From: Macrostomum lignano
Taxonomy: Eukaryota
Assembly (NCBI GenBank): GCA_002269645.1
Contig: NIVC01004094.1
Span: 1-60,889 of the forward strand
Direction of reading: 5' to 3'
DNA length: 60,889 bases
Part shown: piece by piece, positions 4,302-54,642 of the stretch
How positions within the stretch are numbered: position 1 is the stretch's first letter
How the letters are laid out: each line of letters starts with the position of its first letter
Made by a program: the position numbers and the translations under genes
Notes under the pieces: generated by a model
Database searches by the model: none
What the model saw: only the letters and a program-made list of their open reading frames with translations
What the model was told of the DNA's origin: nothing

Positions 4302-7454
<3,153 letters not shown>

Positions 7455-36377: not shown

Positions 36378-36943
36378 AGTAGTAGTATGTTATAAGGGGC
36401 TGCGCCACACTTAATTGCTCGGGCGCATTGCGCGCCAGCTCGCTGGATGACTCAGCCCCTTATAACATACTACTACTACCAGGAGGTCATGGATTCAAGT
36501 GGGTGTGTGATATGTAAATATACATATATCTGTGAGTGAGGGTGTTGAGGGTGAGGGCATGTGGGGGGCATTGGCCTGTGGAATATTTCACCGAACACAG
36601 ATTTTCCGGAATTTTTATACTTTTAAAAAGGGGGGGTGCCCTCGCCCTCATGCCCTCACTCATTTTGAAAATCACTAAAAATAAGTGAAAAATGACTAAA
36701 AACAGGTGAAAATGGTCTGAAAACAGCGATTTTTTGTGATTTTCTAATTTTTTTAAAAAGTGCAATTTTCACGATTCCAGCTCTAAAACCATGAGAAAAG
36801 TTGGATTCACGGGTCAATTTAATGCAATTTCAGGTATATACAATATGAAAGTGTCATCTAATTTGACGATAGTAAATTTTATATATATAAAATGGCCTTC
36901 AGTAAACCATTATTTCTAGGAAATGCTTTAGATATTCAGTCAG
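36378..36943 (+). repeat. Left terminal inverted repeat
   Basis: Reverse complement of 54078-54642, differing by ~3 substitutions and one 1-bp indel. Confidence 0.97.
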
Positions 36944-36985
36944 GTATAGACATAATTGACAATTAGGCATAATCGCCATATAAAA

Positions 36986-37726
36986 ATGAATGATAAAAAT
37001 GAACACATCTATCCTGTGGTTGAGCTGCATGAAGCAGATTTGAGGGAGCGGGACTATTTCAATCAGAGAAAGGGTGAAATCAAAGGCAGTATTGAATGCA
37101 TTACGAAAGATCTTACAATTTATAGCAAAAAGGTAAAAAAGTACAAACGACAAAGTAGCAGGATAAATTGGATCAACATTGTGACAGGAAATGTAAGTCT
37201 CTTGGCTGCTACAGGAATTGGCATAGCAACATCGATACTGACATTGAATCCCTTAGTTATTGGAGTAGTAATCGGGGCAATGAGTGGTTTTGAAGCTGTA
37301 AAATCCACGTCGTTGTTTGCAACTGTGAAAATGCATTGCCAAAAGCAGAAGGCAAAATACATTGTTCTCAGAGATCTGGCAAATCAATACAGAGAGAGAT
37401 TGTATATTTACTCCCAAAAAGCAGTTGATGATTATAGATTAACTCTTGAAGAGGTTCAAGCAGCTGCTGCAATTTATTCAGAATACAGAGAGAAAAGAGA
37501 CCAATTGTTAGACACCTGTGTTGCGCCTGAAGAAGTTAACCATTCGGAAGTCGTTGATAAAATCCTCAAAGAGAGTAGACTTGGTCAATCAGCGAAGGAA
37601 AAAATTAAAAAGGAACTGCTGGAGAAAGATCTGAGAGAAAAATTGGGTCTAGCTGATAAGCCAAAAGAGTACTCGGCAACACTCAATCTTCAATCAAATG
37701 CTCCAAGTGCACCCCCCTATGCTTGA
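36986..37726 (+). CDS. Polinton two-TM/hydrophobic-hairpin protein ending in PSAPPY
   Basis: Hydrophobic hairpin NIVTGNVSLLAATGIGIATSILTLNPLVIGVVIG; start at TAAAAATG; C-terminus NAPSAPPYA*. Confidence 0.8.
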   Translation: MNDKNEHIYPVVELHEADLRERDYFNQRKGEIKGSIECITKDLTIYSKKVKKYKRQSSRINWINIVTGNVSLLAATGIGIATSILTLNPLVIGVVIGAMSGFEAVKSTSLFATVKMHCQKQKAKYIVLRDLANQYRERLYIYSQKAVDDYRLTLEEVQAAAAIYSEYREKRDQLLDTCVAPEEVNHSEVVDKILKESRLGQSAKEKIKKELLEKDLREKLGLADKPKEYSATLNLQSNAPSAPPYA

Positions 37727-37751
37727 GTCTGTTTAATTTTTTTTCTTAAAA

Positions 37752-40700
37752 ATGGAAAGGAAAATACCAGCGGCCTCTTATGAATTCGATCTCGACTCCG
37801 TTGAAGAAATTCGCGGTTTAATCTCCCCAATTCTTTCCGAATATTTGATGGCTAGAGATTCAATAAAATACAGAATTTCCTTTGTCGCAGAATTTTATAA
37901 AGGAACTACCGACAGTTGGATTGAGTTCCAATATCATTCAAAGTATCGAACTTTGTTAAATCTTCTCCAAGTGGAAACTAGTATAGAAAGTACAATTCAG
38001 GATGTTCTGGATGAATTCGATGGATGGAAGGATAGTTTTAATGAAAGGGGATCAGGATATTATTTTGTTAAGTTAGTAAAGATTGTGTTGAAAGTTGTTG
38101 GCATTAATCAGTTGAAAGGAGGAACTTATATTCTAATTCCAATTAAATCAAACGCATTAGTAAATGTTAAGAACACTAAAGACAATAGGTGCTTTCTCTG
38201 GTCTATTTTAGCAAAGCTCCATCCTGTGAAGGAACATAGATATAGAGTTGGTAAGTATACACAGTATATAAATGAAATAAACTTAGGAGACGTTAAATTT
38301 CCAGTGGACATTCGAGATATCTCTGAGATTGAAAAGTTGAACAGTCTTCATATAAATGTGTTTGGATTGAGGGATATAAATACTAAAGAGTCAATATATT
38401 CTATTCGTCTGACAGAAGATTACGACAACCCCAATGTTATTGATTTACTACTTGTTGAAAATCATTATTGCTTAATAACAGACTTGTGTTTATTCCTCAC
38501 GTCCCAAAATTACAACAGGGTTTTTCTTTGTCGAAAGTGTCTTCAAGTCAAATACTCCCAGGATGCACTGGATAATCATAAAGCAATCTGTAATGACTTC
38601 AAAGTGTCAATTGAAGTTCCAAAGATTGATAAGAGGATATTAAAGTTTAAAAACTACCACATGAGTGTAAGAAAACCATTTGTGTTTTATGCAATATTAG
38701 ATTATGTAACGATGGATGATAAATCACTAGAGCTATCACAATGGACACTTTTTACTAGTTCCGACTATGAGGACATTATAAAATCAAATATTATTTTAAA
38801 TACTACAGTGGAATCATTCGTTGAAACCGTAATAAAAAAGTTTGAGCATATAAAAAATGAAATGGATAGATATAAACATCCAAGATTAAGTGATGTCGAA
38901 GAGACTGATTACAAAGCGGCAGAACAATGTTTTCTCTGCTCAAGGCCATTTGTAGATAGTAAAAAAATTCGAGAGCATAATCACTACAATGGTAAATATC
39001 GCGGCGCAGCATGTCAATCATGTAATACCAAGGAGGGCAAGGCGAATCAAACGTACCGTTGTTTCTCCTGAATGAATCTGGAAAAGATCTAAACTATTTG
39101 ATAGTTCCATTAACACGAATAAAGAATACAGCTTATAAATTGGATTTCATTTCTAAAACATCGGAAGACCATGTTGCAATTAAGTGGGGGAATTATACCA
39201 GTGGTGTTGTGTTTTTAGATGGATCTAGGTTTTTGGAACCACCATTTACACTCTCTGAAGAAGAAATAAAATATTTGCCACCCAGTGATACAACAGCAGT
39301 AATTAGAAAGATTTACTCATTTGTCAACGCTTTTGAGAAGTTTCGATCAACATTTTTGAAATATTTCAAGATAGATCCTGCGTATTGCTTTTCCCTTTCT
39401 GGATTATCGTGGGCATGTGGGTTGAAATATACTAATGTGGAATTGGAATTACTTGGTGATAAAGAAATGATATCCATGGTAGAAAGTGGTATTCGCGGCG
39501 GTTTCTCTGGAGTTCTTGGAGATCGATATAAAAAAATGAATAACAAGTATTTAGAAAGTTATGACAGCAATTCTGAATCGTCGTACATGCTATACTTGGA
39601 CAAGAATAATTTATATGGTGAAGCAATGATGAAAAATCTACCTGTGGGAGATTTCAAGTTTGAAAATGATCTAGAGTATCACAAGAATATTCCTAATGGC
39701 AGGGGTTGTTTTCTTGAAGTTGACCTTCAATATACAGAGGAATGTAAGAAAGCTACAAGTAAATATCCACTGGCTCCTGAGAAACGGACAACTAGGTTTG
39801 AGGATTTATCTGATATACAGAAGCAATATCTTGAAGTCGAAAAGAAAAAGTTTGTTCAATCCAAGTTGATGTTGACATTTTACAACAAGGAGAAATATGT
39901 TTTACATCACAGACTACTTGAGTTTTATGAGAAGATGGGCATGCGAGTTACGAGAGTTTATAGAATTCTTTCATTCAAAGAGTCAAACTGGTTGAGTAAA
40001 TACATCGAATTTAATACCAGGCGGAGAATGGAAGCAAAAACTAAATTTGAGAAAGACCTGTGGAAACTACTGAACAATTCATTCTACGGTAAAACAATCG
40101 AAAATGTAAAGAATAGGTCGAACCCTCATCTTGTAGCTGAAGAAAAAACTGCAAGGCGTTATTTTTCCAAACCAAATTTCAAAGATTTCATTATGTTTAG
40201 TGAGGATGCAGTTGGTGTCCAAATGTACAAAAAGACAATTGCGTGTGACAAGCCAATTTATTTAGGGATGGCCATTCTGGATTATGCAAAAATGCTAATG
40301 TACGATTGCTATTACAATGTTATTGAGAAGAATTGGAACAGCTGTCAATTGCACTATTCTGATTGTGATTCGTTGATATTCTCAGTGATTACTCAGGATG
40401 TTTATGAGGATCTTGAAAAAATTAAAGAACACTTAGACACATCGGATTATCCAACAGAGCATCCACTATACTCCGAGACGAACAAGAAAGTTATTGGAAA
40501 GTTGAAAGATGAAATGAATGGCTCAATAATTTCCGAAGCTGTATTCCTGCGGTCAAAGGAGTATGCTTTCACTACAGTTTCAGGGGAGTGTGTTACGATC
40601 AAGGGGGTTGATAAAAGCAGTACAAATATAAAGTTTGAAACATTTAAAAACATACTATTGACAGATTACAAAGATATTCAAAGAGGTAGAGTAAGTATGA

Positions 40701-40819
40701 CTGTATCTGAAAAAAATAAAATATATATTCGTGAGATTATGAAACAAACAATGAGTCCGTTAGATGATAAAAGATATTATTTGGATCCTATCAGATCTAT
40801 TCCTCATCAGCCAATGTAA
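37752..40819 (+). CDS. polB: Protein-primed family B DNA polymerase with C2H2 and endonuclease-VII-like inserts; one frameshift near 39050
   Basis: Motif A YLDKNNLYGEAM, motif B KLLNNSFYGKT, motif C YSDCDS; CFLC...EHNHYNGKYRGAACQSCN; adding one base joins the two ORFs into ~1022 aa. Confidence 0.95.
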
Positions 40820-43305
40820 TCTCATTGATAACATCTTCGTTTATTTTTTTCGTGCACTGTAGCAACACATTTCTAGTTTCTTGCTGTTTACCATCTATCC
40901 TACGCCTATATCTATCCTTATAATACTTACAATAGTCATTGTGATTCTTGAAGAAATCTGTTATGTATTGTTGTTGGAATTCACGTTTCTCACGTTGGGC
41001 TAGAGTCCTATAGTATTCACTCTCTGTTGCGGCAGTGTAAATTTCTCTAATAAGCAAAAATGTTTTTTCCTCAGTTTCTAAAAATTCATAATTCTCTTCA
41101 AAGAAGTGAGCAAACCAATTACAATTCTGTATGAATTCATTAGTGTTTTCAATTACGCTTTTCGATCGATATATTTCACCCTTTGTTTGCTTGAAAATTT
41201 CTAGTAGGTGTTTCATCTCAGCAAACTTATATTTATTCTTAAACTCCTCGGTCTTAAGATATGAATCGGCTTTATAAATGTGTTTCGCATGATCAATGAT
41301 GTCGGTATCTGTTGTATATTTACATGGGTAATTAATATTTATAATTCGTCTTTTTTCTGCATCTCCAATATTTTGTCTAAAGTCAGGCTTGTTGTTGCAT
41401 TCGACTATTAGGGTTGCGTGTAAAACGACATTACACTGACTTGAATATAAATTTCTAGCTTGGATAACCCCACCACCAGTTAGTAATTTTATTGATGCAT
41501 TGTTCAAGACACCACTTACTTCTTGACTGATAACCAACCTCTTTTTATTAATTTGTGCTAGGGCTGGTTGTGGCCTGTCTATTCTTATTGGTGAATTCAA
41601 AACATCAGGACTCAGTGGTGCTGCATAATCAGATCCTAGAGTTCTAAGAAGTAGGTTGTCCTCAACCCCCTTGCCATTTCCACCAGCGCCATCAAACATT
41701 ATAAAGTTTTCAACATTCTTACCCATTAGAGCTGTGGCTATAACGGATTCCCAACTTTTTCTATTTTCTGGATCGGGATGAATTTGGTTATGCAGATTAA
41801 CAATGAAGCCATAGTCGTAATCACTCACTCCAAGTACATCCGAGTAATTATATCCCACCGATTTAGTAACGTAATCGTCATATCTATACTCGCGAAACTC
41901 ACCTGTAAGGAGGTCGTATACTCCATCGTTAAACCCTAGCAAATTCCATTTCATGTCGAATTCAATTTCATTGTTAGTAAACCTCTCTTTGAACAAAGTA
42001 GTTACCTGTTTGAGTTTGTTGGCTCCTTGTATTGAATTTATATTCTTTATTGTACTCTGTAGTTTCTTTTCAAGTGCTTTTAACTTCTCTTTATCATCAG
42101 CCGCCTTCTTAATTGCAATTTCGAGTCTAGTCTTTCGGTGGTTTAACTCACTGCTGACAAGGTGTGATATTTTAAGAAATATGTCATTTATACTACTTAG
42201 TTCTCTCCACTTATCATCATCAAAATAGTAAATACCATCGCTATTGTAAATTATATTATTCTTCTTATATTCATAAACAAAGTTGGTTATATTAACGTCA
42301 GTGAAATTATCATCAAGAACTCAATCCTACCATAATAATCATATTTGCTTTTCCATTCCTTATATTTGTTATAGTTTTCTTCACTTGCCCATTTCTTTAG
42401 TGTACCGATAGTAAGTCTGTCCTGTGCATCAGCAGAGCTGGTACTGGTGCTATTCCACACCTTTTTACATGATTCGGAATCGAACTTATCATAATTTACT
42501 TTTGACCAATCAGTGAATACTTTGTACATTTCATCACCACTGTCTATGTCGCGGAGTATAAGTGCTACCTTGTACCAAGAATCATAGTCTTGGTTTTTGT
42601 GTTGTATTATACTTAACAACTTTGAAGCTCCTTCACAAGTGGGTGGTGGAACGGTGCTTTTTAGTGCCTGTTTATCGGGTTCTTGGTTTTCTTTTTTATC
42701 CTGTGGCTTTATTAATCTATTTATCTCATCAAGAATTACATCTCGCATGTCTATTAAACATTTGGACTTTGTACGTTTGTATTCCTAATTTCACCATCGA
42801 CATAATAGAAACCTGGTGGAGCAAATACTAAGGCGGGAATATCAAAACCCACACTTTGTTGAATCGTTACTTTCAATCCATCTACTTTGTTAAAGTAAAA
42901 GTGGTGTCCCTTGTTTGTCTGAACAACCCAATCACAATGAGTCATACACAGTTCATTCAACTCAGGGCATAGGTCAGCATTATCAATATCGATTACGGTT
43001 ATATTTGAGTTTCTAGTATCTATCCAAATCATGTTGTCTACATCTGGTCGAAATGGTGGTGAGGTTGAATTCCTATCTGCTTTGGTTGGCATTCCTGATG
43101 GTATTTTTTTCTTTGTTTTACTATTCCATGTTACACTGCAACTTCCGAATCTAAAATTAAGTTCTTCATAGAGATTAATTAGTTTATCGTACGATTTTGT
43201 TTGTTTTAAATTTGTCAATCTTGGTGGTGGGACATCATGGTTTTGAAGCGGATCCTGTACGATCACAGGAGAGAAACTTGAATCGTTTTGATTTTTTCTT
43301 TCCAT
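40797..43305 (-). CDS. Prim-Pol + PriCT-2 + D5-like SF3 helicase, split by at least 3 frameshifts
   Basis: VIDID..VQTNKGHHFYF (primase-polymerase); YDSWYKVALILR...FTDWS..KVWNS..LTIGTLKKWA (PriCT-2); LLGFNDGVYDL (D5_N); Walker A FDGAGGNGKG; KKRLVISQE; IKLLTGG. Confidence 0.88.
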
Positions 43306-43321
43306 TTTATTTAAAATAAAT

Positions 43322-43663
43322 TTAACAATATAATTCATCAGTTTCAATGTACTTCTCAAGGGTTATGGGGAGTTTGAAAATGTTCAACTTAAGCATGACG
43401 AAAAATTCATCATTCCTTATGTGCTGTCTCGAAATCAATGCCCATTTATCAACATGTGCAAGATATACTCTGAATGAATACAAATATGGGGGGCATTTAC
43501 AATCGCTGTGTTTTAATATTTCTGCTTTATATTCATCGTAAGCTTTATCAATTTCTTCAATTAGTCGAGCCTTTCGAGTTGGTGTTTTTATTTGAGAGAA
43601 ATTTATAATAGAATCATAATACTTTTGTGGCAGTGCATTTCGTACATTTGGGTTAGCTTCCAT
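43322..43663 (-). CDS. Hypothetical 113-aa Polinton protein
   Basis: Clean ORF with AAAAATG start context, co-oriented with its neighbours; no family recognised. Confidence 0.55.
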   Translation of the reverse strand: MEANPNVRNALPQKYYDSIINFSQIKTPTRKARLIEEIDKAYDEYKAEILKHSDCKCPPYLYSFRVYLAHVDKWALISRQHIRNDEFFVMLKLNIFKLPITLEKYIETDELYC

Positions 43664-43679
43664 TTTTCTATGAAAAATT

Positions 43680-43978
43680 TAACATTTTTGCTTTCTTTTG
43701 GGCAAATTTCTATAGATAATCCAACTTTAGCATTTTCTGTGTATCATTATACTTTGTCTTCTTAAATTTTCGCTACTTTTGCGCCTACTTCATTGGCAGC
43801 TTTTTTATTATTGACTGCCTTTGCGATTCCGGCAGCACCTGCCTGTCTTATGAGAGGTAGATTGTCTTTTAGTAAGTTGGAATGGTGCTTCTAGTATCAA
43901 AATACCTTCTCCATTGTACTCTAGGGGCTCACCTATTGTATACTCTCTTAGCTTGCGTGGATCTGTAACGGGGCACAT
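43680..43978 (-). CDS. Small frameshifted ORF with NGEG|IFD motif (putative second membrane-lytic/core protein)
   Basis: MCPVTDPRKLREYTIGEPLEYNGEG then, after a frame change, LLKDNLPLIRQAGAAGIAKAVNNKKAANEVGAKVAK; resembles the ORF at 51944. Confidence 0.45.
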
Positions 43979-44142
43979 TTTTGTCTATTTTTAGAAACAG
44001 AAAAATAAACACAGGAACAGAAAAAGACTTTCAGACACCAAAGGCCAAACTCCATTGGGCTAAATGTGGCCTGCTCAAAGCGATGATATATTTGTTTAAA
44101 TTATTACCTTAATAAATGTTTGATATCAAGTCATGTTGATAA

Positions 44143-44412
44143 TTATGGCGCATTAGATGGTTCTATATCAGCGCGGCATGTTGGGCACCTAACCATGTTG
44201 CCCTCTTGAATTCCGGTGCGATAACATATTTCACAAACCACAGCTCGACAACATGCCATGGTAACGTTTGGTGGCCGTGGTTCGTGTTGGCAGATTGGAC
44301 AAAGCCCTTGATTATTCCCCGGCTGAGCTGGATGGTTCTGTACTTGAGTCGGGTTATCCTCTGGTTGAATATCAGCTAGTTGGTGCTCCATATCTTGGCG
44401 ATAAGCAACCAA
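44143..44412 (-). CDS. RING-finger-like protein (5' end uncertain)
   Basis: CPIC-x12-CC-x4-CEIC-x12-CPTC. Confidence 0.7.
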   Translation of the reverse strand: MVAYRQDMEHQLADIQPEDNPTQVQNHPAQPGNNQGLCPICQHEPRPPNVTMACCRAVVCEICYRTGIQEGNMVRCPTCRADIEPSNAP

Positions 44413-44527
44413 GCGCCTCTCTGCTTCTTGAACGCGACGTTTTTGAAGATAGTAGTTCTAGGAAAGGGTTTGGTGCGCTCGTATATGATTTTTGTAAACT
44501 TAAAACCTTATAATGTAAAAACACTTT

Positions 44528-44719
44528 TTAACTAACCTTTAGCTGATTAAAGAAGCGCTCTTCATTAGCCAAATTTTGTGGGTTATACTCCAAAAAGATG
44601 TTGATGGCAATATCTCTAAACATTGAGTTCCTATGGTGTTGTCGCAAATTTCGCTCACGAATTCTAAGAGTTGCTCTAGCGGCAGTAAGCCTCTCGTGCA
44701 AATTCGAGAAAGAAGGCAT
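44528..44719 (-). CDS. Hypothetical 63-aa protein, possibly the 5' part of the RING gene
   Basis: Short helical/basic ORF immediately upstream of, and co-oriented with, the RING ORF. Confidence 0.35.
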   Translation of the reverse strand: MPSFSNLHERLTAARATLRIRERNLRQHHRNSMFRDIAINIFLEYNPQNLANEERFFNQLKVS

Positions 44720-44934
44720 TGTAGGAATGATATTTTGTAAGAAGGTAAAGTTAGTAGAGAAAAATTACTAGACCTTGCCGCTCGTGGCCATTCATTTATA
44801 TATTTTTATGACAAAACGTCAGACCCCGCATTCCATTCAGACCAAAACACGAGACCAATTTTTATCTTTTTATTTTTCGAAATTTTCTTCTCGCGTTTTG
44901 GTCTCGCGTTTTGGTCTGAATGGAATGCATGACT

Positions 44935-45417
44935 CAGTGTAGCAAGAGTATAAGATAAAAAATATAAAACCCCGAATTCCTGTGTTAGTCATCGAGTGAA
45001 GTTTGCCTACTTGCTTTGCTATCTTGGTCGGACAATAGCCGACCATATTGTTGCGGTGCGAGCTTGCTTCTGTGTAGCAAGAGTAGATGAAAAATATAAA
45101 ACCCCGAATTCCTGTGTTAGTCATCGAGTGAAGTTTGCCTACTTGCTTTACTATCTTGGTCGGACAATAGCCGACCATATTGTTGCGGTGCGAGCTTGCT
45201 TCTGTGTAGCAAGAGTATAAGATAAAAAATATACAACCCCGAATTCCTGCGTTACTCATTGAGTAAAGTTTGCCTACTTGCTTTGCTACGGTGGTTGGAC
45301 AATAGCCGACCATATTATTGCTCTGCGAGATTGCTTCTGTGTGTAGCAAAAGTAGATGAAAAATATACAACCCCGAATTCCTGCGTTAGTCACTGAGTGA
45401 AGTTTGCCTACTTGCCA
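44935..45417. repeat. 132-135-bp structured tandem repeat, ~3.6 copies, inside the Polinton
   Basis: cccgaattcc at 44971, 45103, 45238 and 45372; internal stems ggtcgg/ccgacc and cttgct/agcaag. Confidence 0.92.
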
Positions 45418-45510
45418 GCTTCCTAAGATAGTAATTTTTTGTTTATTGACCCCGTTGGGAGTTTTTGTACTTATGTTGTGTTTTTATGGTGACTATGGTA
45501 TTATGTCTAA

Positions 45511-46919
45511 TTATGTGACAATTATGTCTAAAATCGGATAAAGTTGAAAGCCTGAAACAATAAGAACAGTTGATCCTTCAGTGGCTGAATTAATATGCAC
45601 TCTATAACCGGAGAATTTTTCGGTGGAAGCTACTTCAAAATATTTCATCACTCCAGGAACTAAACCAGCATTTTCGGTAGAAAAAATATTCCTAAAGTCT
45701 CTCTTGTTATTGCTCCCTTTCAGAATAAAACTTTTTGGTTGATTTTTTATAATTTCACTACCTACTGCTTTGGTTCCTTTCAATCCGAATTTCCAAATTT
45801 GAATAGATTCAGGAAGTTGTACTTCAATGTAAGAATTGGGTTCATTCCTCGATGCCCATTCTGAATTAGATACTATATAACCCCAATTATCTGACGTTTC
45901 AAATGCTCCTGATGACGCTACATTGAAACCCCTTTCTCTATAGTTTTGACGTGTTGCTAGTGAGGGAATATATCCTGTATAAGATTTGAAACCTAGTCCC
46001 CGCCTTAGTCGCAGCTCCACTGATTCAAGTGCATTGTCTACGTATAGCTTTGGTACAGCTTGAAGTCTATCTATAGGCCACACTAAATCATTAACCACTG
46101 TTTGTCTCTCAAGTAATTCAACTTTTGTAAGCTTTACGGAACCAGAAAAATTAAGAGAATAATGGAAATAATATGAGGGTTTGGGTATTTTTTTCCTAAG
46201 ATGTGCATTGCCCCTTCGTAGTTCAATGGGTGCACTTTGTTCAACAGGTGTCCAGTTTGTTCCATTTAGGCTCACACTAACAGACCAACCAGGCCACACC
46301 TCTCCTTCCAACTTTATCTCTACAACTTTCCTAGCTCTTTTCAAAAATTGAAATCGTATCCACTTGTCTGAGTCATCTGCACTGCTCCATTCTGAAGCCG
46401 GGTTTGAATCTGCAACATGATATGCTGCTGAAGAGTTATGAGAAGCGGTCACTTTCATGTCAGGATGGGAAGCGTTTGAAGTCAGTAATGAAAGAATATT
46501 GACTAATTTCGAACTCTCTGTACCTCCCGCAGTACCTTGCCTTCTGCTAACAAAGTGTCAATCTCAGTTTTAGAATACATCTTAGTGTCAATCTCAGTTT
46601 TAGAATACATCTTAGTGTCAATCTCAGTTTTAGAATACATCTTAGTGTCAGTTTCGGTTTTTGTGCAGACATTGTTTACGCGCCCATGAGCATCGTCAAT
46701 TAATTGTAGCATGGTGATATTCATTGCGTCACTATCTTCCTTTGAATAAGAGTCTGAAACATCTCTCTTTGCTAACAATAAATTATCTATTTCCTCTCTC
46801 TTATATCCTTCATTTTCATTGATGTATCGATCATCAGCTAACGCTATTGTTATTCCAGGTGCTATATCATTTGAATTTGACGAGTAACCAAATTGATTAG
46901 CAGTATTCTTGTAACTCAT
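45511..46919 (-). CDS. Fiber/receptor-binding-like protein: YSKTEID repeats plus two F5/8-type-C (discoidin)-like domains; one frameshift near 46505
   Basis: 30-bp repeats encoding YSKTEIDTKM; SEWSS...KWIRFQF and SEWAS...SYIEVQLP...PKSFILKGSNN...FSGYRVHI; adding one base fuses 46503-46919 and 45511-46458 into ~469 aa. Confidence 0.7.
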
Positions 46920-47347
46920 TTTAATTGCTGCAAAATTTCATTATAGCTATCTCCTTTATCGATTCGATGTAAAAAGTACAGCGACATTTGACCACAAAAT
47001 TTCTTATCTAAAGTTTGAATTTGTTCTTCCATGTCTCCACATATTCTATTCTTTGTGTGATTAAACTTTTCCATAATTTCCAGTGTGGGCGGTAGTGCAT
47101 AGGAATCAAAAAAATAAACCTTATCATGAGCTGAAAAGATAGCTGAATGATGTATACCCCGTTCTTTCGAAGTGTGAATATTTGTCATAAAGTAACCATA
47201 CTGTGGTAAATCAACAATTTCATCTCTCATGGCATAGCGAAATGGTTTTAACTTGAGATATTTTGCCCAATTTATCAGATCAATATTAGTCGTAGTGTCA
47301 GTCCCAAACTTTTGTTTAAATGCATTCCATGTCTCAGCTTCGCTCAT
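46916..47347 (-). CDS. Adenain-like cysteine maturation protease
   Basis: GIHHSAI (His), YFFDSY (Asp), QIQ...FCG (Gln, Cys). Confidence 0.9.
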   Translation of the reverse strand: MSEAETWNAFKQKFGTDTTTNIDLINWAKYLKLKPFRYAMRDEIVDLPQYGYFMTNIHTSKERGIHHSAIFSAHDKVYFFDSYALPPTLEIMEKFNHTKNRICGDMEEQIQTLDKKFCGQMSLYFLHRIDKGDSYNEILQQLK

Positions 47348-47356
47348 TTTTAACAC

Positions 47357-48148
47357 TCATATTTGTCGTACGTGTAGATTTATAAATATTTCCTCGCCAT
47401 CAAAGTCGTATAGAACACCAGACTCATCTTCGATGACAAAGTCGAATGTGCTCAACATGTTTGTAGTTAGTGGTAGGTACACAGGATTTGCAGGCTCTTG
47501 AATAATTTTACTTCCCATTGGGACAGAGAACGATGGAATTGAAAGAAGTATTTGCTTATCAATTAAATGATTTCCATTGGCTGGATCAGTGATAAAACCC
47601 CCTTTGATATTGAGACAACGAACCATGATCGCACTTCTAGCTCCGTCTATCCGAGCTGGATTTGGAGCTCTCTCAAATGGTTTCAAATACACTTCCGAAT
47701 TGAATCCCAACAGTCTTCTAAAGTTATTGGAATGTGCATCCCTGAAATCAACTTGATACTCTGTGGCTAACCGTAACTCAACCCTACGCGTGTCTAGGCT
47801 TGCACTGAAAACAATAGCCCCCTCTTTCCAATCATTTGCAGCTGTTAGCAATCTTTGAATCTCGCTTGACAGACTTTTAACTTCCCAAGATCCTGCTTGA
47901 ATCTTTATTTTCTTCCATGTTCTACCACTATCCCTCGAGTATCGCAACTCATTATTGCCTCCTTCAATATTGTTAATAGCATCAAAGACTGCAAACTTTT
48001 TTATACCAGCTTCGTATTCTCGATCTTCATACAAATTTATCGGAGTGCCTAGAGTTTGTCGAAATGGGTTTTTAATTGAAAAGAAGTCAAATGTGCGTTG
48101 AAACTTTTTACTCAAGAGGATGTTGACTTTTTCTATTTCTTTTTCCAT
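47357..48148 (-). CDS. Minor capsid (penton) protein
   Basis: 263 aa, beta-rich; NNELRYS..G..WKKIKI..GSWE, FRRLLGF, ILLSIP, PVYLPL, GEEIFINLHVR; typical position in the capsid module. Confidence 0.85.
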   Translation of the reverse strand: MEKEIEKVNILLSKKFQRTFDFFSIKNPFRQTLGTPINLYEDREYEAGIKKFAVFDAINNIEGGNNELRYSRDSGRTWKKIKIQAGSWEVKSLSSEIQRLLTAANDWKEGAIVFSASLDTRRVELRLATEYQVDFRDAHSNNFRRLLGFNSEVYLKPFERAPNPARIDGARSAIMVRCLNIKGGFITDPANGNHLIDKQILLSIPSFSVPMGSKIIQEPANPVYLPLTTNMLSTFDFVIEDESGVLYDFDGEEIFINLHVRQI

Positions 48149-48150
48149 TT

Positions 48151-48882
48151 TTAAGCAAGTAATTCTACTAGCTCTTTATCAACATTGTTATGTCCCTCTG
48201 CTTTTGCGGCTAGTAATGTCAACACTCTTTCACTGAGTCCAGATCCCGGTTTTACTCGATATCCTGGTGGATTATCTTTCAATATCCTTACTGCTTGCTT
48301 ATAATTCCCACTTGATTTGGCCGCTGGATTTTTACAGTGTTCAATGAGGTTAACATAATCCTGCAATGTTTGCATCTTGAATTGCTTCAGCTCTTCACCA
48401 TTTTCAGTTACTTTAGGCATTTTGAACAACTCTTCAAGATCTTCAGAAAATGGCATTCGGAATTCGTTGACAATGATGTCCCGACCTTGTTCATGGAATT
48501 CAACCTCTATTACAGATGATCCAAATATATATCCAGCATCAGTTTTTTGAATCCGTATACTAGGCGCTGGTCTTTGAGTTATTGGAATCTTTCCAATTTC
48601 TTCAATTATTTTGTCAAATACTTCCAGAGGTTCAAATCGTCCTTTTGGTGTACTTAATTGCGGAACTGGAACTTTTTGATTCTGAAGTTTATCAACAAGG
48701 TTGGCATTGAAATCAATAAATTCATCAAGCTTTTCTGTGACAGGTTTTTGAGCTAATGGAGCCACTCTTGCATATAAACTCTCTTCTCCAATTTTCAAAT
48801 AGCGTTGAGCATCATTTCTGGATTTGTACGTTTCTCGCTGCTTTGCTAAATTAATGAGTTCTCTTATATATTCATTAGTCAT
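48151..48882 (-). CDS. Conserved Polinton core protein (PZ-like)
   Basis: KPVTEKL near the N-terminus; C-terminal GSG|LSERVLTLLAAKAEGHNN..E motif typical of Mavericks. Confidence 0.65.
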   Translation of the reverse strand: MTNEYIRELINLAKQRETYKSRNDAQRYLKIGEESLYARVAPLAQKPVTEKLDEFIDFNANLVDKLQNQKVPVPQLSTPKGRFEPLEVFDKIIEEIGKIPITQRPAPSIRIQKTDAGYIFGSSVIEVEFHEQGRDIIVNEFRMPFSEDLEELFKMPKVTENGEELKQFKMQTLQDYVNLIEHCKNPAAKSSGNYKQAVRILKDNPPGYRVKPGSGLSERVLTLLAAKAEGHNNVDKELVELLA

Positions 48883-48884
48883 TT

Positions 48885-49658
48885 TTACAATGGGATTTTA
48901 GTTAGAACATCCTTATACAAATCTTGCTCATCCTCATCAGCTCTTGTATTTATATAGATATAGCCATACTTCTTTTTCCAAGCCTCTCTACATTTAGCCT
49001 TGAATATAGCGGGTTCATAATTCGTTTCTATATTTCTAGCAATGTGATTTAAGTTTGTATCTTTTTGTTTAAAGATTATGTAACATGTCGTATTCTCCCT
49101 GACAGTATTGCGATCTAGTTTGGTAAAATTTTGAGCTAGATAAAAACCACAACAGTTTCCATGCCTGCCTCTCTGAAACAGACTTTCCTGAAATGTTTGA
49201 TTAGCCTCTCCCAAAACATCGTCCAATATCACACATGTCTTTAGTCCATTATGAAAAATTTCTTCATTTGGAGTATGGGAAAGAGTGACAGGAATTTTCT
49301 CTATTACTTCTGAATTTTCTGATGTGCTTTGCACTCGACCAGGGTTGGCTGCCTCTCGACAAATATGTCTAATATCTTCAGGAGATGCATCCTCACTCAC
49401 CTGGTAGACATGATAGAGTGAGTTGATAAGAGAAGGTGGGAGACCATTTTCAAAGCCATATTTTAGAAACTGATACTCTGGATCCATTTGAGATGCTCTG
49501 GGAACATATAAAACTAACTCATTAAAGTCAACTAGTTTTTCAGGACTTGTAAGAATATGGAATAGTAAATATGTTTTACCCGTATTTGTAGCGCCGATAA
49601 TACAACATAAAAGAGGATTAGGGAAAATAGGATCATGCTGAAATTTTACTTTGGGCAT
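48885..49658 (-). CDS. A32/FtsK-HerA-like DNA packaging ATPase
   Basis: Walker A IIGATNTGKT, Walker B CVILDD, RGRH, YLAQ, VREN. Confidence 0.95.
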   Translation of the reverse strand: MPKVKFQHDPIFPNPLLCCIIGATNTGKTYLLFHILTSPEKLVDFNELVLYVPRASQMDPEYQFLKYGFENGLPPSLINSLYHVYQVSEDASPEDIRHICREAANPGRVQSTSENSEVIEKIPVTLSHTPNEEIFHNGLKTCVILDDVLGEANQTFQESLFQRGRHGNCCGFYLAQNFTKLDRNTVRENTTCYIIFKQKDTNLNHIARNIETNYEPAIFKAKCREAWKKKYGYIYINTRADEDEQDLYKDVLTKIPL

Positions 49659-49679
49659 TTAAAAAAAGAAAAAATGACC

Positions 49680-51044
49680 TTATTCGACGCGGGTCATTTG
49701 ATATTCACTGGTAACTTTTATTACATTCTTTGTTTGTTCAAGAATTAGTGCAAAAGCAGTCAGCTCAACATTTGTTGACTTCTTGATAAATAATTGAATA
49801 TTCACTCCACTCTTGACCAGAAACTCATCTTGAGCTGTTAGATCAAAGCAAAAGATTGGATAGATGGTTAGAAAGTCTTGTTTATTGAATGGAGGAGTTA
49901 CACCGAAACGGCTGCAGATGTCTTCGTACATTTCATACGCTCTGTGAATGTCTTGAGCTACTGGATCAATTTCAACATAATCATTCGGATACATCACCTG
50001 ATTTAATCTGACTTGAAGCTGGGTTATTTTCACTGCATTTGCTCCAGTTTTGTAAGACACATACTTGTGATCATTAACTATATATGATGGGTTGTTTACG
50101 TCATATTTGAAAGCTACAAAGATTGCAAGTGGCATATTGGAGATGTTGGCTATGTTCCATGTATATGGACTTCCTTGAATGAGTTGTGGTGGAACCGTTA
50201 CCCTCTCTGGAAATGATACTGTAATGTCCTTGTTGAGTGATTTTAGAAAAGCTGCTTCAGCACTGGGTGACAAAGTAATAGCAGGGATCCAAATCTCAAA
50301 GCTATTAATAGTTAACTTAGCTTCCGTCCCGGCAGCTCCAAAGAAAATTTCAGCATCGTTAGTCTTTCTTGTCCATGTGAATTTATATTTAATTCCTTTG
50401 CTAATCTTCTGCCAATCAAGGAACCCAATGAGAGGTGTTAATGATAGTTTGATTGTTCCACCTCTGTTTGGAGCATTAGTGACATTGTTATAATTTTCAA
50501 GCCTCCTAATGTATCCAGTATTCGAATCCTTCTTATTGAGTCTATTTTTCATAGCGATTGCTGCAGTTCTCACAGCTTCAGCATCTGCGTTGTTTGCTAG
50601 AGGTATATCAGAAACAGTCCCAGCATCTCCAGTGTCTGGAATCCATCCGTATGCTTCTCCAACTTCATTCATTAATTTTGAGTACATTACGGACTTTAAG
50701 ATTGTGTCATACTCTCCAGGATCATTATAGACTTTCTTTGTTCCTCCAATGTCAACTATGAGTTGAGAGAAAAGTCTCATAGGCCAATTATGTTCTAGAG
50801 TAATGTTCGTATTCAAGTCGGTGTTATCTCGTTGTGTTATTGAGTATTTTATACAACCGAATGCCTCTGACATGAGAATGTATGACTCTGTTGAATTGAC
50901 TTCATGAACTATTTGACCTCCTGCAACATTGAGATTATTAGTGCTACCTGGAGTTGGAGAAATCTTAATATAGTCTTCTTTCTTTTTGAAAAAGCTAAAA
51001 GTTTTGTCCTCATATATGCTCAGTATATCCTTTTTGTTCTCCAT
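49680..51044 (-). CDS. Double jelly-roll major capsid protein (hexon/PY)
   Basis: Intact 454-aa ORF; LFSQLIVDIGG, PLIGFLD, IWIPAITL, PLAIFVAF, QVRLNQVMYP, YPIFCFDLT. Confidence 0.88.
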   Translation of the reverse strand: MENKKDILSIYEDKTFSFFKKKEDYIKISPTPGSTNNLNVAGGQIVHEVNSTESYILMSEAFGCIKYSITQRDNTDLNTNITLEHNWPMRLFSQLIVDIGGTKKVYNDPGEYDTILKSVMYSKLMNEVGEAYGWIPDTGDAGTVSDIPLANNADAEAVRTAAIAMKNRLNKKDSNTGYIRRLENYNNVTNAPNRGGTIKLSLTPLIGFLDWQKISKGIKYKFTWTRKTNDAEIFFGAAGTEAKLTINSFEIWIPAITLSPSAEAAFLKSLNKDITVSFPERVTVPPQLIQGSPYTWNIANISNMPLAIFVAFKYDVNNPSYIVNDHKYVSYKTGANAVKITQLQVRLNQVMYPNDYVEIDPVAQDIHRAYEMYEDICSRFGVTPPFNKQDFLTIYPIFCFDLTAQDEFLVKSGVNIQLFIKKSTNVELTAFALILEQTKNVIKVTSEYQMTRVE

Positions 51045-51128
51045 TTTTATAAGAGAAATTTCAACTAAGCTTCATGAGGTCTAAGAATTATCCCATTACC
51101 CTGTTTCTCCTTTTCAACTTTAAAGTCT

Positions 51129-51515
51129 TTAGCAGCCACTTGACTGCTTCGCTGGGACTTGTTCGACTCTTTTAGCCGCATCAACTAATACTCCACTCCC
51201 TTGAGCCTTTTTCAACTCTTCTAGTTTTTGCCGTTCAATGCTTTCTATTGTCTTATTATGTTTAGCATTGTTGGCTGTATTAACACTTTTTGCAATCATT
51301 GTACCAACTCCTGAGGCTGCTCCGATACCACCCAAAATTGCTGGTAGTAAGCCTAATAGAGGAATTATTCCACCTTCATGTTCTTTCTGTTTCTCTTGCA
51401 ATTCTCGAATCTTCTCTTTAGAAAGATATTGCTTTTGCTTATTTACAGTAACATATCTTGGTTTTCCCTCTCGAACATATCGATTGAGTCTTGCTTCAGT
51501 GTTTTTCTCGCTCAT
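51129..51515 (-). CDS. Small structural protein with GG|IIPLLGLLPAILGG hydrophobic segment (membrane-penetration candidate)
   Basis: TAAAAATG start; hydrophobic segment directly after a GG motif, as seen in Maverick small core proteins. Confidence 0.7.
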   Translation of the reverse strand: MSEKNTEARLNRYVREGKPRYVTVNKQKQYLSKEKIRELQEKQKEHEGGIIPLLGLLPAILGGIGAASGVGTMIAKSVNTANNAKHNKTIESIERQKLEELKKAQGSGVLVDAAKRVEQVPAKQSSGC

Positions 51516-51538
51516 TTTTAAGGTCAGAATTTCTTCAA

Positions 51539-51944
51539 CCATTGCCTTGTCTCAAAGACACTTGAGACTGTTCTGCTGTTCCTAGAGCCTTTTTAACAAT
51601 ATCTTGAATAGCCTTATTTGATTGAGAAGCTATCTGTTGCTCTTCTTCCATTCTTTCTTTGCTTCTTTATCTCTACGTTTCTTTTTAATATATTCCAGTT
51701 CCTCACCTGCTTTAGACATGTCACTGTATGATTTCTTCGCATCGAATATGTTCTTCGCTGTGGTAGCTGTTTTACCTATTGCATCAGCTCCACTCACAAT
51801 TTTACTTCCATGATTTGATAAAAAGTTTGTGACACCACTGATCATATCACCAATTCCTTCACCCTCTTTATCAGCTAGTAGTTGTGAATCAGACGTTTCA
51901 ATCTGACCTTTCGCCCGTTTGCAGTTTGTTCGATAGGCGCTCAT
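51539..51944 (-). CDS. Small structural protein with GEG|IGDMISGVTNFL amphipathic helix; frameshift near 51645
   Basis: TAAAAATG start; amphipathic helix after GEG; the shifted frame ends ...RQGNG*. Confidence 0.65.
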
Positions 51945-54129
51945 TTTTAGTTGAAAAATTTGCTGGTAGAAGCTGGGATTTGTAAAATGATCCAATGATT
52001 TCTTCTCCATTCTCATCCTCAATAATGTAGGTTATGGGATTGGAGTAAACTATTTTCTTTATCCTAAACACTTCTGAAATTTTCCAATATCCTCTTCGAC
52101 CCTTTTCAAAGTGCTCCTTATATCTATAGATATGAACTTTGTCACCTACTTTGAAGTTTGGTTTCTCATTTGAATACTCGAAAGTTGGCTTTGGTACTCG
52201 CTCAGGATGTTTAGATGCTTCTGAAGGAGTTATCAGAATCTCAGAATGGATTGTGTTGTTGTATTTTTCAACAATAGCTGGCAATGTGTGGAGCCACTTC
52301 TGATTACCCTGTAGATCAAATTCAAACCAGAGTTTATTTGTGAGAGTACGATTGAACCTCTCAATCATTGCATTCTTGGACTCGCCATAAATTGAAAACA
52401 TCTTTTATATATTCACCCTTTCATCCTTCTTTCTAATGTTGTCTTTTGAAAACGAATATAGCTTGTACATATGCTGATTATAAAACTCCTTGCCTTCATC
52501 TACACAAAGTCTCTCTGATCGTCTTCCTGATTCCTTAAATACTTTTTGGAAAGCTTCTGCAACTTCCGCTCCCGTCTTTGTTTTCAAAGGAACTGCCCAG
52601 GCGTAACGTGTAAAACCATCTATGATAGTAGAGCATATTTGTAACCTCTTTCGGGGTAGGATAATGATATCTGCATGCCAAATTGTGTCTTTTGCATAGT
52701 GAATCATTTTTCTAAATACTCTTGGCTTTCGATATTCTTTATGCAATTTTACTGCATCTTCATAGCTAAGACCCTTACCATAAATTGTTAGACAGTCAAT
52801 ACAATTGTTGGGGTTGTGAGTATGAATGCCTAATCCAAACCGAACTTTAGCCTTGATAATACGCTTTACTAGATTTCGAATGAGTCTCTCTTTCACAGAC
52901 AAGTCACTGGTTGGAATAGCATCTAAATCAGCTATCATTTTTTCATCAGCTATATGCTTCTTTGCTAGAGCTTCCTCTGGATTTGAAGAAGTGTTTTCAG
53001 CATCTCTATAGTTTTTGTCATGATAGTAAGCAGTCCAATCGATTGGGTTAATTGGTAGACTGTCATACCGAGGCCGGTCTGTAATTGGATTGAGTCTCTT
53101 GTCTAAATTTGTACCCGGCAGTTGTTCCTCAATCTTTCGAAAGAGGCTGGACTTTATCTTAAGGCTTCATCAGGATTGACCAGATCCTTCAGCCCCACCC
53201 CCATTAAGTCTCTGAACCTTCTCCATATCCTTGTCAACTTCGTTCGGACTTAGGAGCTTGGCTGCGGATTTCCACCATGTCCTCAAGCTTGTTACCATCG
53301 AACCATAGGTTCGCGGACGAAGTCCGATTGGGAACAGGAATTACCTGTGTTCCTTCAGAAGATTTCTCAACTGAAGTGGTACTTGAGGCTGTTATTGACG
53401 TACTAGAATCGGACGGAGTTCCCGCAATTTGAAGGTGTCGCCAATCACTAAGCACTTGTTTAATGTTGGTTATAATGTTTTTGTATTGATCACCATAAAG
53501 AAATTTCAATGCAAATTCTCCTGTTATAAGGGTGATTCCATTGTCTAGTAAAATATTCTTAGGTTCCTTTGTAGTTTATTGATGCATACATAATACAACT
53601 GATAGGTGGGATAAGAATTTTTATAGTCTAATAGTTTCTGATAATTCCTTTCACGACTTGATGAATTGTCCGTGTTATCAGAAGATTTAAGCTCTAATGC
53701 AATCTTTCGCTCAACGTGAACCAGGTCAATCTTTTTTACCTTCTCGAATCCAAAATAATTTTCTGCTAATATTTCATATAGTCTGCCTAGTCTCATTTGA
53801 ATAACTTTAATCTTGTGTGAAATTATTAACTCTTCTTGGAAAAGATCATGAAGAATTTGATCATGCCCAACCTTATCATCAATTGGTTTCAGAAGAATTT
53901 CTCGAATTGTTTGCTCCATTTTTACTATAGAAACTTTAACAAGTGCTTATTTGATGACTAGCAAGGACATTGACTTCCTCACTCAGGCCACTACGTAACC
54001 TGCAAAAGAATACCCTGGAATATGAAGTTCTCCTGGGTATTTTCCAGTGGCGAAGATGGGTGGTAGTTTTGTTATAGCTGACTGAATATCTAAAGCATTT
54101 CCTAGAAATAATGGTTTACTGAAGGCCAT
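51898..54129 (-). CDS. int: Parvovirus-type PLA2 domain fused to a retroviral-like DDE integrase; exon 1 54129-53998, exon 2 from 53118; in-frame stop at 52405-52407
   Basis: The spliced junction gives ELHIPGYSFAG|PGTNLDKRL...PINPIDWTAYYHDKNY (PLA2 HD dyad); then WHAD, YAWAVPLKTK, CVDEGKEFYN, IERFNRTL, FKVGDKV, GSFY; exon 2 is in frame with the ORF at 52938. Confidence 0.9.
53119..53997 (-). ncRNA. Group I self-splicing intron (IC1-like), 879 nt
   Basis: Follows exon U and ends in G; P AAATTGCGGGAA (53419-53430), Q AATCCGCAGC (53261-53270), R TCAGAGACTT (53206-53215), S AAGATAAAGTCC (53149-53160); P1 with U.G, plus P2, P2.1, P3, P4, P5a/b/c with A-rich bulge, P6, P7, P8, P9 and P9.0 identified by eye. 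Confidence 0.95.
53234..53919 (-). CDS. Intron-encoded PD-(D/E)xK nuclease, restriction-enzyme-like; putative homing endonuclease (one-base frameshift near 53575)
   Basis: LGRLYE...KIDLV...IALELKS..NTDNSSS...YQKL; restoring one A joins TKEPKNILLDNGITLITGEFALKFLYGDQY; has its own TAAAAATG start. Confidence 0.75.
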
Positions 54130-54642
54130 TTTATATATATAAAATTTACTATCGTTGAATTGGATGACACTTTCATATTGTATATACCTGAAATTGCATT
54201 AAATTGACCCGTGAATCCAACTTTTCTCATGGTTTTAGAGCTGGAATCGTGAAAATTGCACTTTTTAAAAAAATTAGAAAATCACAAAAAATCGCTGTTT
54301 TCAGACCATTTTCACCTGTTTTTAGTCATTTTTCACTTATTTTTAGTGATTTTCAAAATGAGTGAGGGCATGAGGGCGAGGGCACCCCCCCTTTTTAAAA
54401 GTATAAAAATTCCGGAAAATCTGTGTTCGGTGAAATATTCCACAGGCCAATGCCCCCCACATGCCCTCACCCTCAACACCCTCACTCACAGATATATGTA
54501 TATTTACATATCACACACCACTTGAATCCATGACCTCCTGGTAGTAGTAGTATGTTATAAGGGGCTGAGTCATCCAGCGAGCTGGCGCGCAATGCGCCCG
54601 AGCAATTAAGTGTGGCGCAGCCCCTTATAACATACTACTACT
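54078..54642 (-). repeat. Right terminal inverted repeat
   Basis: Reverse complement of the left TIR; contains the first 17 codons of the PLA2-integrase gene. Confidence 0.97.

Follow-up and report, generated by a model that had tools for sequence, protein, structure and literature searches.

A Polinton group I intron with an Eco47II-family nuclease ORF interrupts a GGNCC site, the predicted target of the enzyme

A group I intron that splits a phospholipase–integrase gene of a Polinton, and that holds a nuclease ORF in one of its loops, raises the question of which DNA such an enzyme would cut and how the element carrying it could tolerate it. The first-pass annotation of the window (the whole stretch of 60,889 nucleotides analysed here) proposed a candidate new family of homing endonucleases. 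We followed up this proposal by comparing the locus with its copies in the same 764-Mb eukaryotic assembly and with relatives from viral and metagenomic contigs. The coordinates are collected in Table 1.

The surrounding Polinton has terminal inverted repeats, a 6-bp duplication, an rve integrase, a capsid and an ATPase, that is, all the features by which such elements are defined. Pfam identifies in it a PLA2-rve integrase, a D5 primase-helicase, an A32 ATPase and a double-jelly-roll capsid protein; other ORFs, without a Pfam polymerase match, we take to be pPolB-like from motifs known to us. The nuclease and its intron lie at one end of the element. PLA2-like genes have been described in animal-tropic adintoviruses (PMC8502044, available sections), and by this analogy the host may be an animal. 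The second exon and other genes of the window copy contain several frame breaks that are missing from the contigs of sequencing runs and from sister copies, which points to decay of this copy or to indels introduced in its assembly. An N-terminal ORF of the polymerase region (37752-39071) ends with an Endonuclease VII-like domain (PF02945, E 1.2e-7), and four copies of a repeat of about 134 nt at 44927-45415 are preceded by a 31-bp inverted repeat (44828-44928).

Table 1. Coordinates of the Polinton, its interrupted gene, the intron and the nuclease ORF in the window
Feature	Position	Strand	Details
Complete Polinton, adintovirus-like	36378..54642	.	~570-bp terminal inverted repeats, 6-bp TATAAA duplication, 18.3 kb
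Exon 1, PLA2-integrase gene	53998..54129	-	44 codons, end ...YSFAG
Exon 2, remaining PLA2 domain and rve integrase	51898..53118	-	More than one frame in window copy
Group I intron, 879 nt	53119..53997	-	Between Gly and Pro codons (GGT|CCG), splitting GGNCC
P1 helix, exon end and internal guide sequence	53984..54002	-	U.G at 5' splice site, z -3.46
P2.1 12-bp extension, 5' strand	53938..53949	-	Read from sequence
P2.1 12-bp extension, 3' strand	53449..53460	-	Read from sequence
Ribozyme core	53119..53448	-	P3 53437-53431/53202-53196; P4 53426-53421/53268-53263
Ribozyme core, further parts	53119..53448	-	P7 53212-53206/53154-53149; P8; P9; terminal G at 53119
Nuclease ORF, first frame, 124 aa	53545..53919	-	Contains E49, D65, E76, K78; frameshift in frame overlap
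Nuclease ORF, second frame	53234..53575	-	Domain end and read-through into ribozyme core

The intron matches the Rfam model RF00028 at 53511-53128 on the reverse strand with 88.9 bits (gathering score 50), and it has the U.G pair in P1, the P3–P9 core and the terminal G of a group I intron. Its ends were set by comparison with intron-less alleles and by P1. They place the insertion at the conserved Gly|Pro of a phospholipase loop, YSFAG|PGT. In an alignment of 14 related core sequences 98.9% of the cells are paired, and 10 of the 39 pairs show changes on both sides; none of 500 shuffles reached this level, which is not to be read as a probability because the sequences are mutually related, and slid controls pair at 38–52%. 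Splicing of the 879-nt intron is predicted from its structure. Contigs from four of the 24 listed runs, none of them on record as RNA and of uncertain RNA status, gave no spliced joint; in three of the four, the joints across the intron site carry the letters of the intron-less allele and therefore do not demonstrate splicing. Related double-hairpin insertions of 30–33 nt were observed at 53335-53301 of the window and in L016, L023, L027, L364, L368, L375 and L386. They occupy several different sites in intron loops and gene ends of two Polinton families (A, that of the window, and B, see below) and resemble tiny mobile elements.

The ORF had been placed between the two strands of P2.1 as a single reading frame of about 228 aa after correction (53234..53919). 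Its start does lie in the peripheral loop L2.1, and the strands of P2.1 are exact 12-nt reverse complements, but the last 70 or so codons run through the 3' strand into the ribozyme core. ORF-less relatives have a short hairpin at this position. The nuclease domain itself comprises about 160 aa, and the read-through tail is missing from free-standing relatives (161–177 aa). A single open frame of 211–233 aa is present in 15 of the 28 full-length genomic copies with both exons, but the window copy is one of the 13 that lack it and has two frames. Both runs that cover the break have the unbroken form, so it may be an assembly error or decay specific to this copy. In unspliced RNA the frame of exon 1 would terminate five codons inside the intron, 63 nt upstream of the nuclease start. 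The latter has the context AAAATG found at most other genes of the Polinton, which makes translation by reinitiation or from a separate transcript plausible.

The predicted protein contains the motifs E49, D65, E76-L-K78 and NTDNSSS that had been noticed earlier; E76 and K78 are invariant, and E49 and D65 are retained in at least 90% of 29 sequences. The suspected kinship with Eco47II is borne out by the Pfam family RE_Eco47II (PF09553; cut-off 25.9 bits, scores of 29.4 bits, with E 7.4e-7, and 30.6 bits), which is also matched by 104 of 111 aligned relatives. A fold model of a naturally open copy, rather than the window copy, has a pLDDT of 96.6, and the elements H28-55, E66-68, E73-80, H86-102 and E107-114 form the alpha-beta-beta-beta-alpha-beta core of PD-(D/E)xK nucleases. 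Its top structural match is EcoO109I (Z 9.4, rmsd 3.8, 159 residues aligned), the sole chain out of 48,161 at Z of at least 8; the next has Z 7.5. The Foldseek match (E 3.2e-4) and the neighbours in a structure atlas, which are clusters of restriction-enzyme-like proteins, are in line with the fold assumed in the first-pass annotation. The profile match and the modelled structure together show the ORF product to be a nuclease of the Eco47II family, although its likeness to the bacterial members is weak (29–31 bits in Pfam, 14% identity to EcoO109I). A search of PDB sequences with the 111-sequence profile yielded no matches at E 10, and a viral fold library searched with the model yielded nothing informative. 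The family of the known intron nuclease I-Ssp6803I (PF11645) was matched by none of the 111 members at E 0.01, and I-Ssp6803I itself (PDB 2ost) is not among the fold matches listed. The nuclease is under purifying selection, with dN/dS of 0.11–0.38 in every pair whose dS could be computed and exceeded 0.05; the ratios of two near-identical pairs are 0.94 and 1.28. The intron with its nuclease is a real and conserved feature.

Homologues of Eco47II are described, in words that mark uncertainty, as cutting GGNCC (PMC10305163, partial text), and EcoO109I is described as cutting RG^GNCCY (PMC3089450, partial text). The Polinton (18,287 bp) contains no GGNCC at all, where dinucleotide frequencies predict 21.7 sites and a maximal Markov model 14.8. 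Among 256 gapped words it shows the strongest depletion (the next is at 0.76). Both middle-base classes, GG[AT]CC and GG[GC]CC, are absent, with about 7.5 expected for each. The zero was reached in none of 2000 synonymous shuffles (mean 7.0) and none of 2000 shuffles of codon order (mean 16.3). Since Gly-Pro is always encoded as GGNCC, the purge removes this dipeptide: the 4854 aa of the Polinton proteins contain none (8.5 expected), against 11 Pro-Gly. Host flanks are undepleted (80 and 14 sites, 97 and 13 expected). Erosion by deamination of methylated cytosine was rejected as the cause, because its products are not in excess in the Polinton (GGNTC 66 against 81 expected, GGNCT 64 against 76); GGNGC is in excess (71 against 43). 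The point of insertion, GGT|CC, is itself a GGNCC. Given a Polinton free of this word, the predicted target is a 5-bp site, and GGNCC is the most likely specificity as far as it can be read from DNA composition. The long target that had been implied for the enzyme is thus probably wrong. Cutting at short sites had been counted against a homing role, but the short site predicted here is the insertion site itself.

Intron-less alleles, on which the homing proposal depended, do exist. Among 20 stretches of family A chosen as likely intron-less, 18 have GGC|CC at the junction, and one stretch of family B and locus L363 also have a GGNCC there; at the intron junctions the site is broken. The intron-less PLA2 target predicted in the first-pass annotation was therefore right in position only, since the 18 alleles read GGC|CCA and their flanks differ from those given. 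Away from the junction, GGNCC is missing from 15 of 19 intron-less stretches, occurs once in two and four times in another two. It is absent from 19 of 21 intron-bearing stretches, and both exceptions have one site and truncated ORFs. Two intron-less copies (L395 and L396) have Gly-Gln instead of Gly-Pro at the site and thus no GGNCC there; they may be escape alleles or decayed.

The comparison of flanks suggested earlier, as a check for co-conversion, revealed mosaic copies with breakpoints near the site, among family A copies that are not independent of each other. One element body (99.0–100% identical over 49700-52399) occurs with two intron variants that are 93% alike, or with no intron. 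Exon 1 of one intron-bearing copy is 99.2% like that of an intron-less allele, and identity to intron-less copies falls to about 79% just upstream of the insertion site. Sequence exchange is therefore concentrated around this site. Many near-identical intron-less copies with GGNCC at the junction persist, so homing has not swept through the family, and the exchange could equally reflect intron loss.

A second family of Polintons in the genome, family B, is 25–28% identical to family A in the capsid, about 59% in the integrase and 63–69% in the nuclease. Its nuclease is a free-standing gene directly upstream of the PLA2 gene, and its intron, which is ORF-less and 299–337 nt long, is inserted at GGT|CC as in family A (its ends were mapped for 17 of the 28 stretches; 4 of 14 stretches score above the Rfam cut-off). 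No GGNCC is present in the shared DNA of 27 of 28 family B stretches; an intron-less stretch has the junction site alone. Eight nuclease-less stretches were examined, and such copies retain both the intron and the purge. Family C has an uninterrupted Gly-Pro and 16 GGNCC sites where 7.2 are expected (once a repeat is left out, 7 where 5.2 are expected), and no nuclease was found on its contig. An adintovirus-like viral contig used as a control is undepleted as well (7 sites, 5.9–8.5 expected).

Outside the genome, on the metagenome contig L122, a nuclease of 55% identity is encoded within an intron of this kind, which interrupts a PLA2 gene at the same GGT|CC. The context of the closest database relatives was judged from their read-through tails: 13 of the 29 longer than 150 aa have a tail that translates a group I core. 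Distant relatives (26–43% identity), many of which are on giant-virus contigs, have a C5 methyltransferase as their neighbour at 134 of the 141 loci from viruses and metagenomes. Of the seven methylase-less loci, L122 is one, and the other six are cut short within 253 bases. Methylases were called by Pfam in 15 of 15 loci tested and then by a profile built from those 15. The same profile found none in the window with its complete Polinton, nor in any of 68 partial Polinton stretches, and the Polinton nuclease therefore lacks the nearby cognate methyltransferase that defines a restriction-modification system. One giant-virus pair of nuclease and methylase links to annotated bacterial Eco47II-plus-methylase systems. 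GGNCC is mildly and non-specifically depleted in the methylase-paired loci (0.65 of expected, with three other words lower). A search of 19 methylase-type loci for group I introns was negative, as was one for the nuclease in L363 and in 121 loci of viral origin that have a related intron motif. A FastTree phylogeny of 74 nucleases, which has a long outgroup branch and from which one near-duplicate and fragments shorter than 140 aa were left out, separates the proteins of Polinton and intron type from the methylase-paired ones and makes families A and B sisters (0.90). The tree does not settle whether the free-standing or the intron-embedded nuclease came first.

We consider it rather likely that the ORF encodes an enzyme of the Eco47II/EcoO109I kind which has lost its methyltransferase, would still cut GGNCC and would act in both homing and exclusion. 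The ancestor would be a type II restriction endonuclease whose methyltransferase partner was lost while the 5-bp site was kept. Self could be told from non-self without methylation if the Polinton stays free of GGNCC, and hence of Gly-Pro. The Gly-Pro of the phospholipase loop presumably cannot be lost; its GGNCC is interrupted by the group I intron, and only the spliced RNA would contain the site. In a sister element without the intron, the insertion point would then be the one site exposed, and a cut there would be repaired from a copy that has the intron (homing). The enzyme would also destroy unrelated elements in which the site is frequent (exclusion). Since GGNCC abounds in host DNA, the enzyme has to be kept silent or sequestered, or else it is lethal. 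The host genome could be spared if integrated copies are silenced, or by a compartmentalised or lytic phase. With GGNCC removed from the carrier and the essential site hidden, a 5-bp cutter would act as a single-site enzyme. We give slightly better than even odds to the broader reading that the intron stands in place of the methyltransferase in a methylase-free restriction system, with a cutter derived from a giant-virus restriction-modification pair turned into a single-site homing and exclusion enzyme, which would make it a new family of homing endonucleases.

Several other explanations were weighed. The enzyme could be a classical homing endonuclease like I-Ssp6803I, with a long site around a GGNCC core, the purge being due to relaxed off-target cutting or a remnant of an ancestral short site. 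The position in the intron and the intron-less alleles match standard homing, the codons flanking the site are partly conserved among families A, B and L122, and an enzyme with a long site would leave host DNA intact. We nevertheless find this unlikely, as the depletion is complete in both middle-base classes and kept in two divergent families, and the bare 160-aa domain is matched end to end by EcoO109I and has no extra DNA-binding module.

A use chiefly as a weapon, in which a GGNCC cutter destroys the DNA of the host or of competitors in a lytic phase with homing as a side effect, would agree with the free-standing gene of family B, whose slot is shared with another nuclease-like ORF, with the persistence of intron-less alleles, and with restriction systems of chloroviruses and marseilleviruses that are described as acting on host DNA or competitors (PMC7253447, partial text). 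It seems quite unlikely to us, given that family A, L122 and, as judged by tails, the 13 close relatives have the gene within an intron that is inserted at the enzyme's own target, and given where the sequence exchange is concentrated. We attach a very low probability to a purge and intron that defend against an outside enzyme, for example the restriction-modification system of a co-infecting giant virus, with the nuclease as a captured passenger. Related restriction-modification pairs are indeed common on giant-virus contigs, and the purge is found in nuclease-less family B copies, together with the intron, and in most intron-less A copies; but family C of the same genome is unpurged, and the nuclease is under purifying selection with intact catalytic residues and occurs in introns across many independent samples.

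The preferred reading, a methylase-free GGNCC cutter, sets the Polinton nuclease beside several known systems. With Eco47II (PF09553) systems and EcoO109I (PDB 1wtd/1wte) it shares the Pfam match, the PD-(D/E)xK fold and the catalytic residues; it differs in having no methyltransferase, in having its gene in or beside a group I intron of a eukaryotic Polinton, and in being protected, apparently, by the absence of the site together with the intron. I-Ssp6803I (PF11645) and I-Bth0305I (EDxHD/Vsr-like) are likewise restriction-fold nucleases in group I introns that disrupt the target, but they have long targets (17 bp for I-Ssp6803I) and bacterial or phage hosts, in contrast to the predicted 5 bp. 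PacI is a solitary restriction enzyme without a methylase, an HNH enzyme with an 8-bp site and no intron, whose carrier genome is free of the site. A purge of a 5-bp word at the cost of a dipeptide is a much heavier constraint.

In the classification of PD-(D/E)xK proteins, I-Ssp6803I (group 68), Vsr/I-Bth0305I (58) and Eco47II (14) are separate groups (PMC3424549, partial text). Six families of homing endonucleases, with typical sites above 14 bp, are listed in the available part of PMC3984707. Long target sites are named as their hallmark in that of PMC3943268, which gives about 60 bp for I-Bth0305I. The Polinton enzyme would work like a homing endonuclease yet probably fails this hallmark, and it would equally be a restriction enzyme without the defining methylase. 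Collaborative homing, in which a free-standing endonuclease and an ORF-less intron act at one site, has been described in phages (PMC3984707, partial text). Family B matches this arrangement and family A the composite intron that the model predicts; here both states occur in one eukaryotic genome, with enzymes 63–69% identical. RF00028 introns of 309–376 nt are reported from protein genes of protist polinton-like viruses, with no endonuclease identified in the available text (PMC12220804). They too lie in protein genes of Polinton relatives, but in another gene and in protist groups only, and the supplementary tables of that source may add more. The full-text literature searched, mostly without subscription journals, showed no account of an intron nuclease like Eco47II, nor of Polintons that avoid GGNCC: GGNCC does not occur in the available text on giant-virus restriction systems (PMC7253447), the available parts of PMC10748475 and PMC11835236 have intron and virus matches in the reference lists only, and that of PMC7248222 has none.

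These comparisons suggest an alternative route to a unique cut, in which a short site is kept and removed from the carrier genome. If so, the path from a restriction-modification pair to free-standing and intron-encoded nucleases would be traceable, with intermediates in one genome, and the collaborative-homing model would become testable outside phages. Polintons would then be in competition with each other at the level of DNA, and would produce a nuclease that the host genome could not tolerate, which would bear on a lytic or compartmentalised viral phase of these elements.

The introns of family B differ from that of the window in several details. The terminal G is universal in group I introns; A replaces it in 14 of the 17 mapped family B introns (L364-L391). 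In these the binding site in P7 retains its G-C pair, next to which three other pairs of P7 are changed on both sides. L370 contains at 5319-5634 a second type of intron with a different P4/P7 core, shared peripheral parts and the same 5' splice site. Similar 3' ends are present in L366, L369, L371, L379, L381 and L390, and the 3' exon of this type apparently encodes Gly-Ala-Gly-Leu-Thr rather than Gly-Pro-Gly-Thr. In L386, L388, L389 and L390 the slot of the free-standing nuclease upstream of the PLA2 gene holds an ORF of 189–205 aa with CxxC pairs and a DHFIP...N motif, presumably HNH-like; the one that was tested has no Pfam match. Beyond the Polinton, the GC-rich end of the window (58572-60889) contains broken reverse-transcriptase-like sequence, which we take, from its motifs, to be probably a non-LTR retrotransposon.
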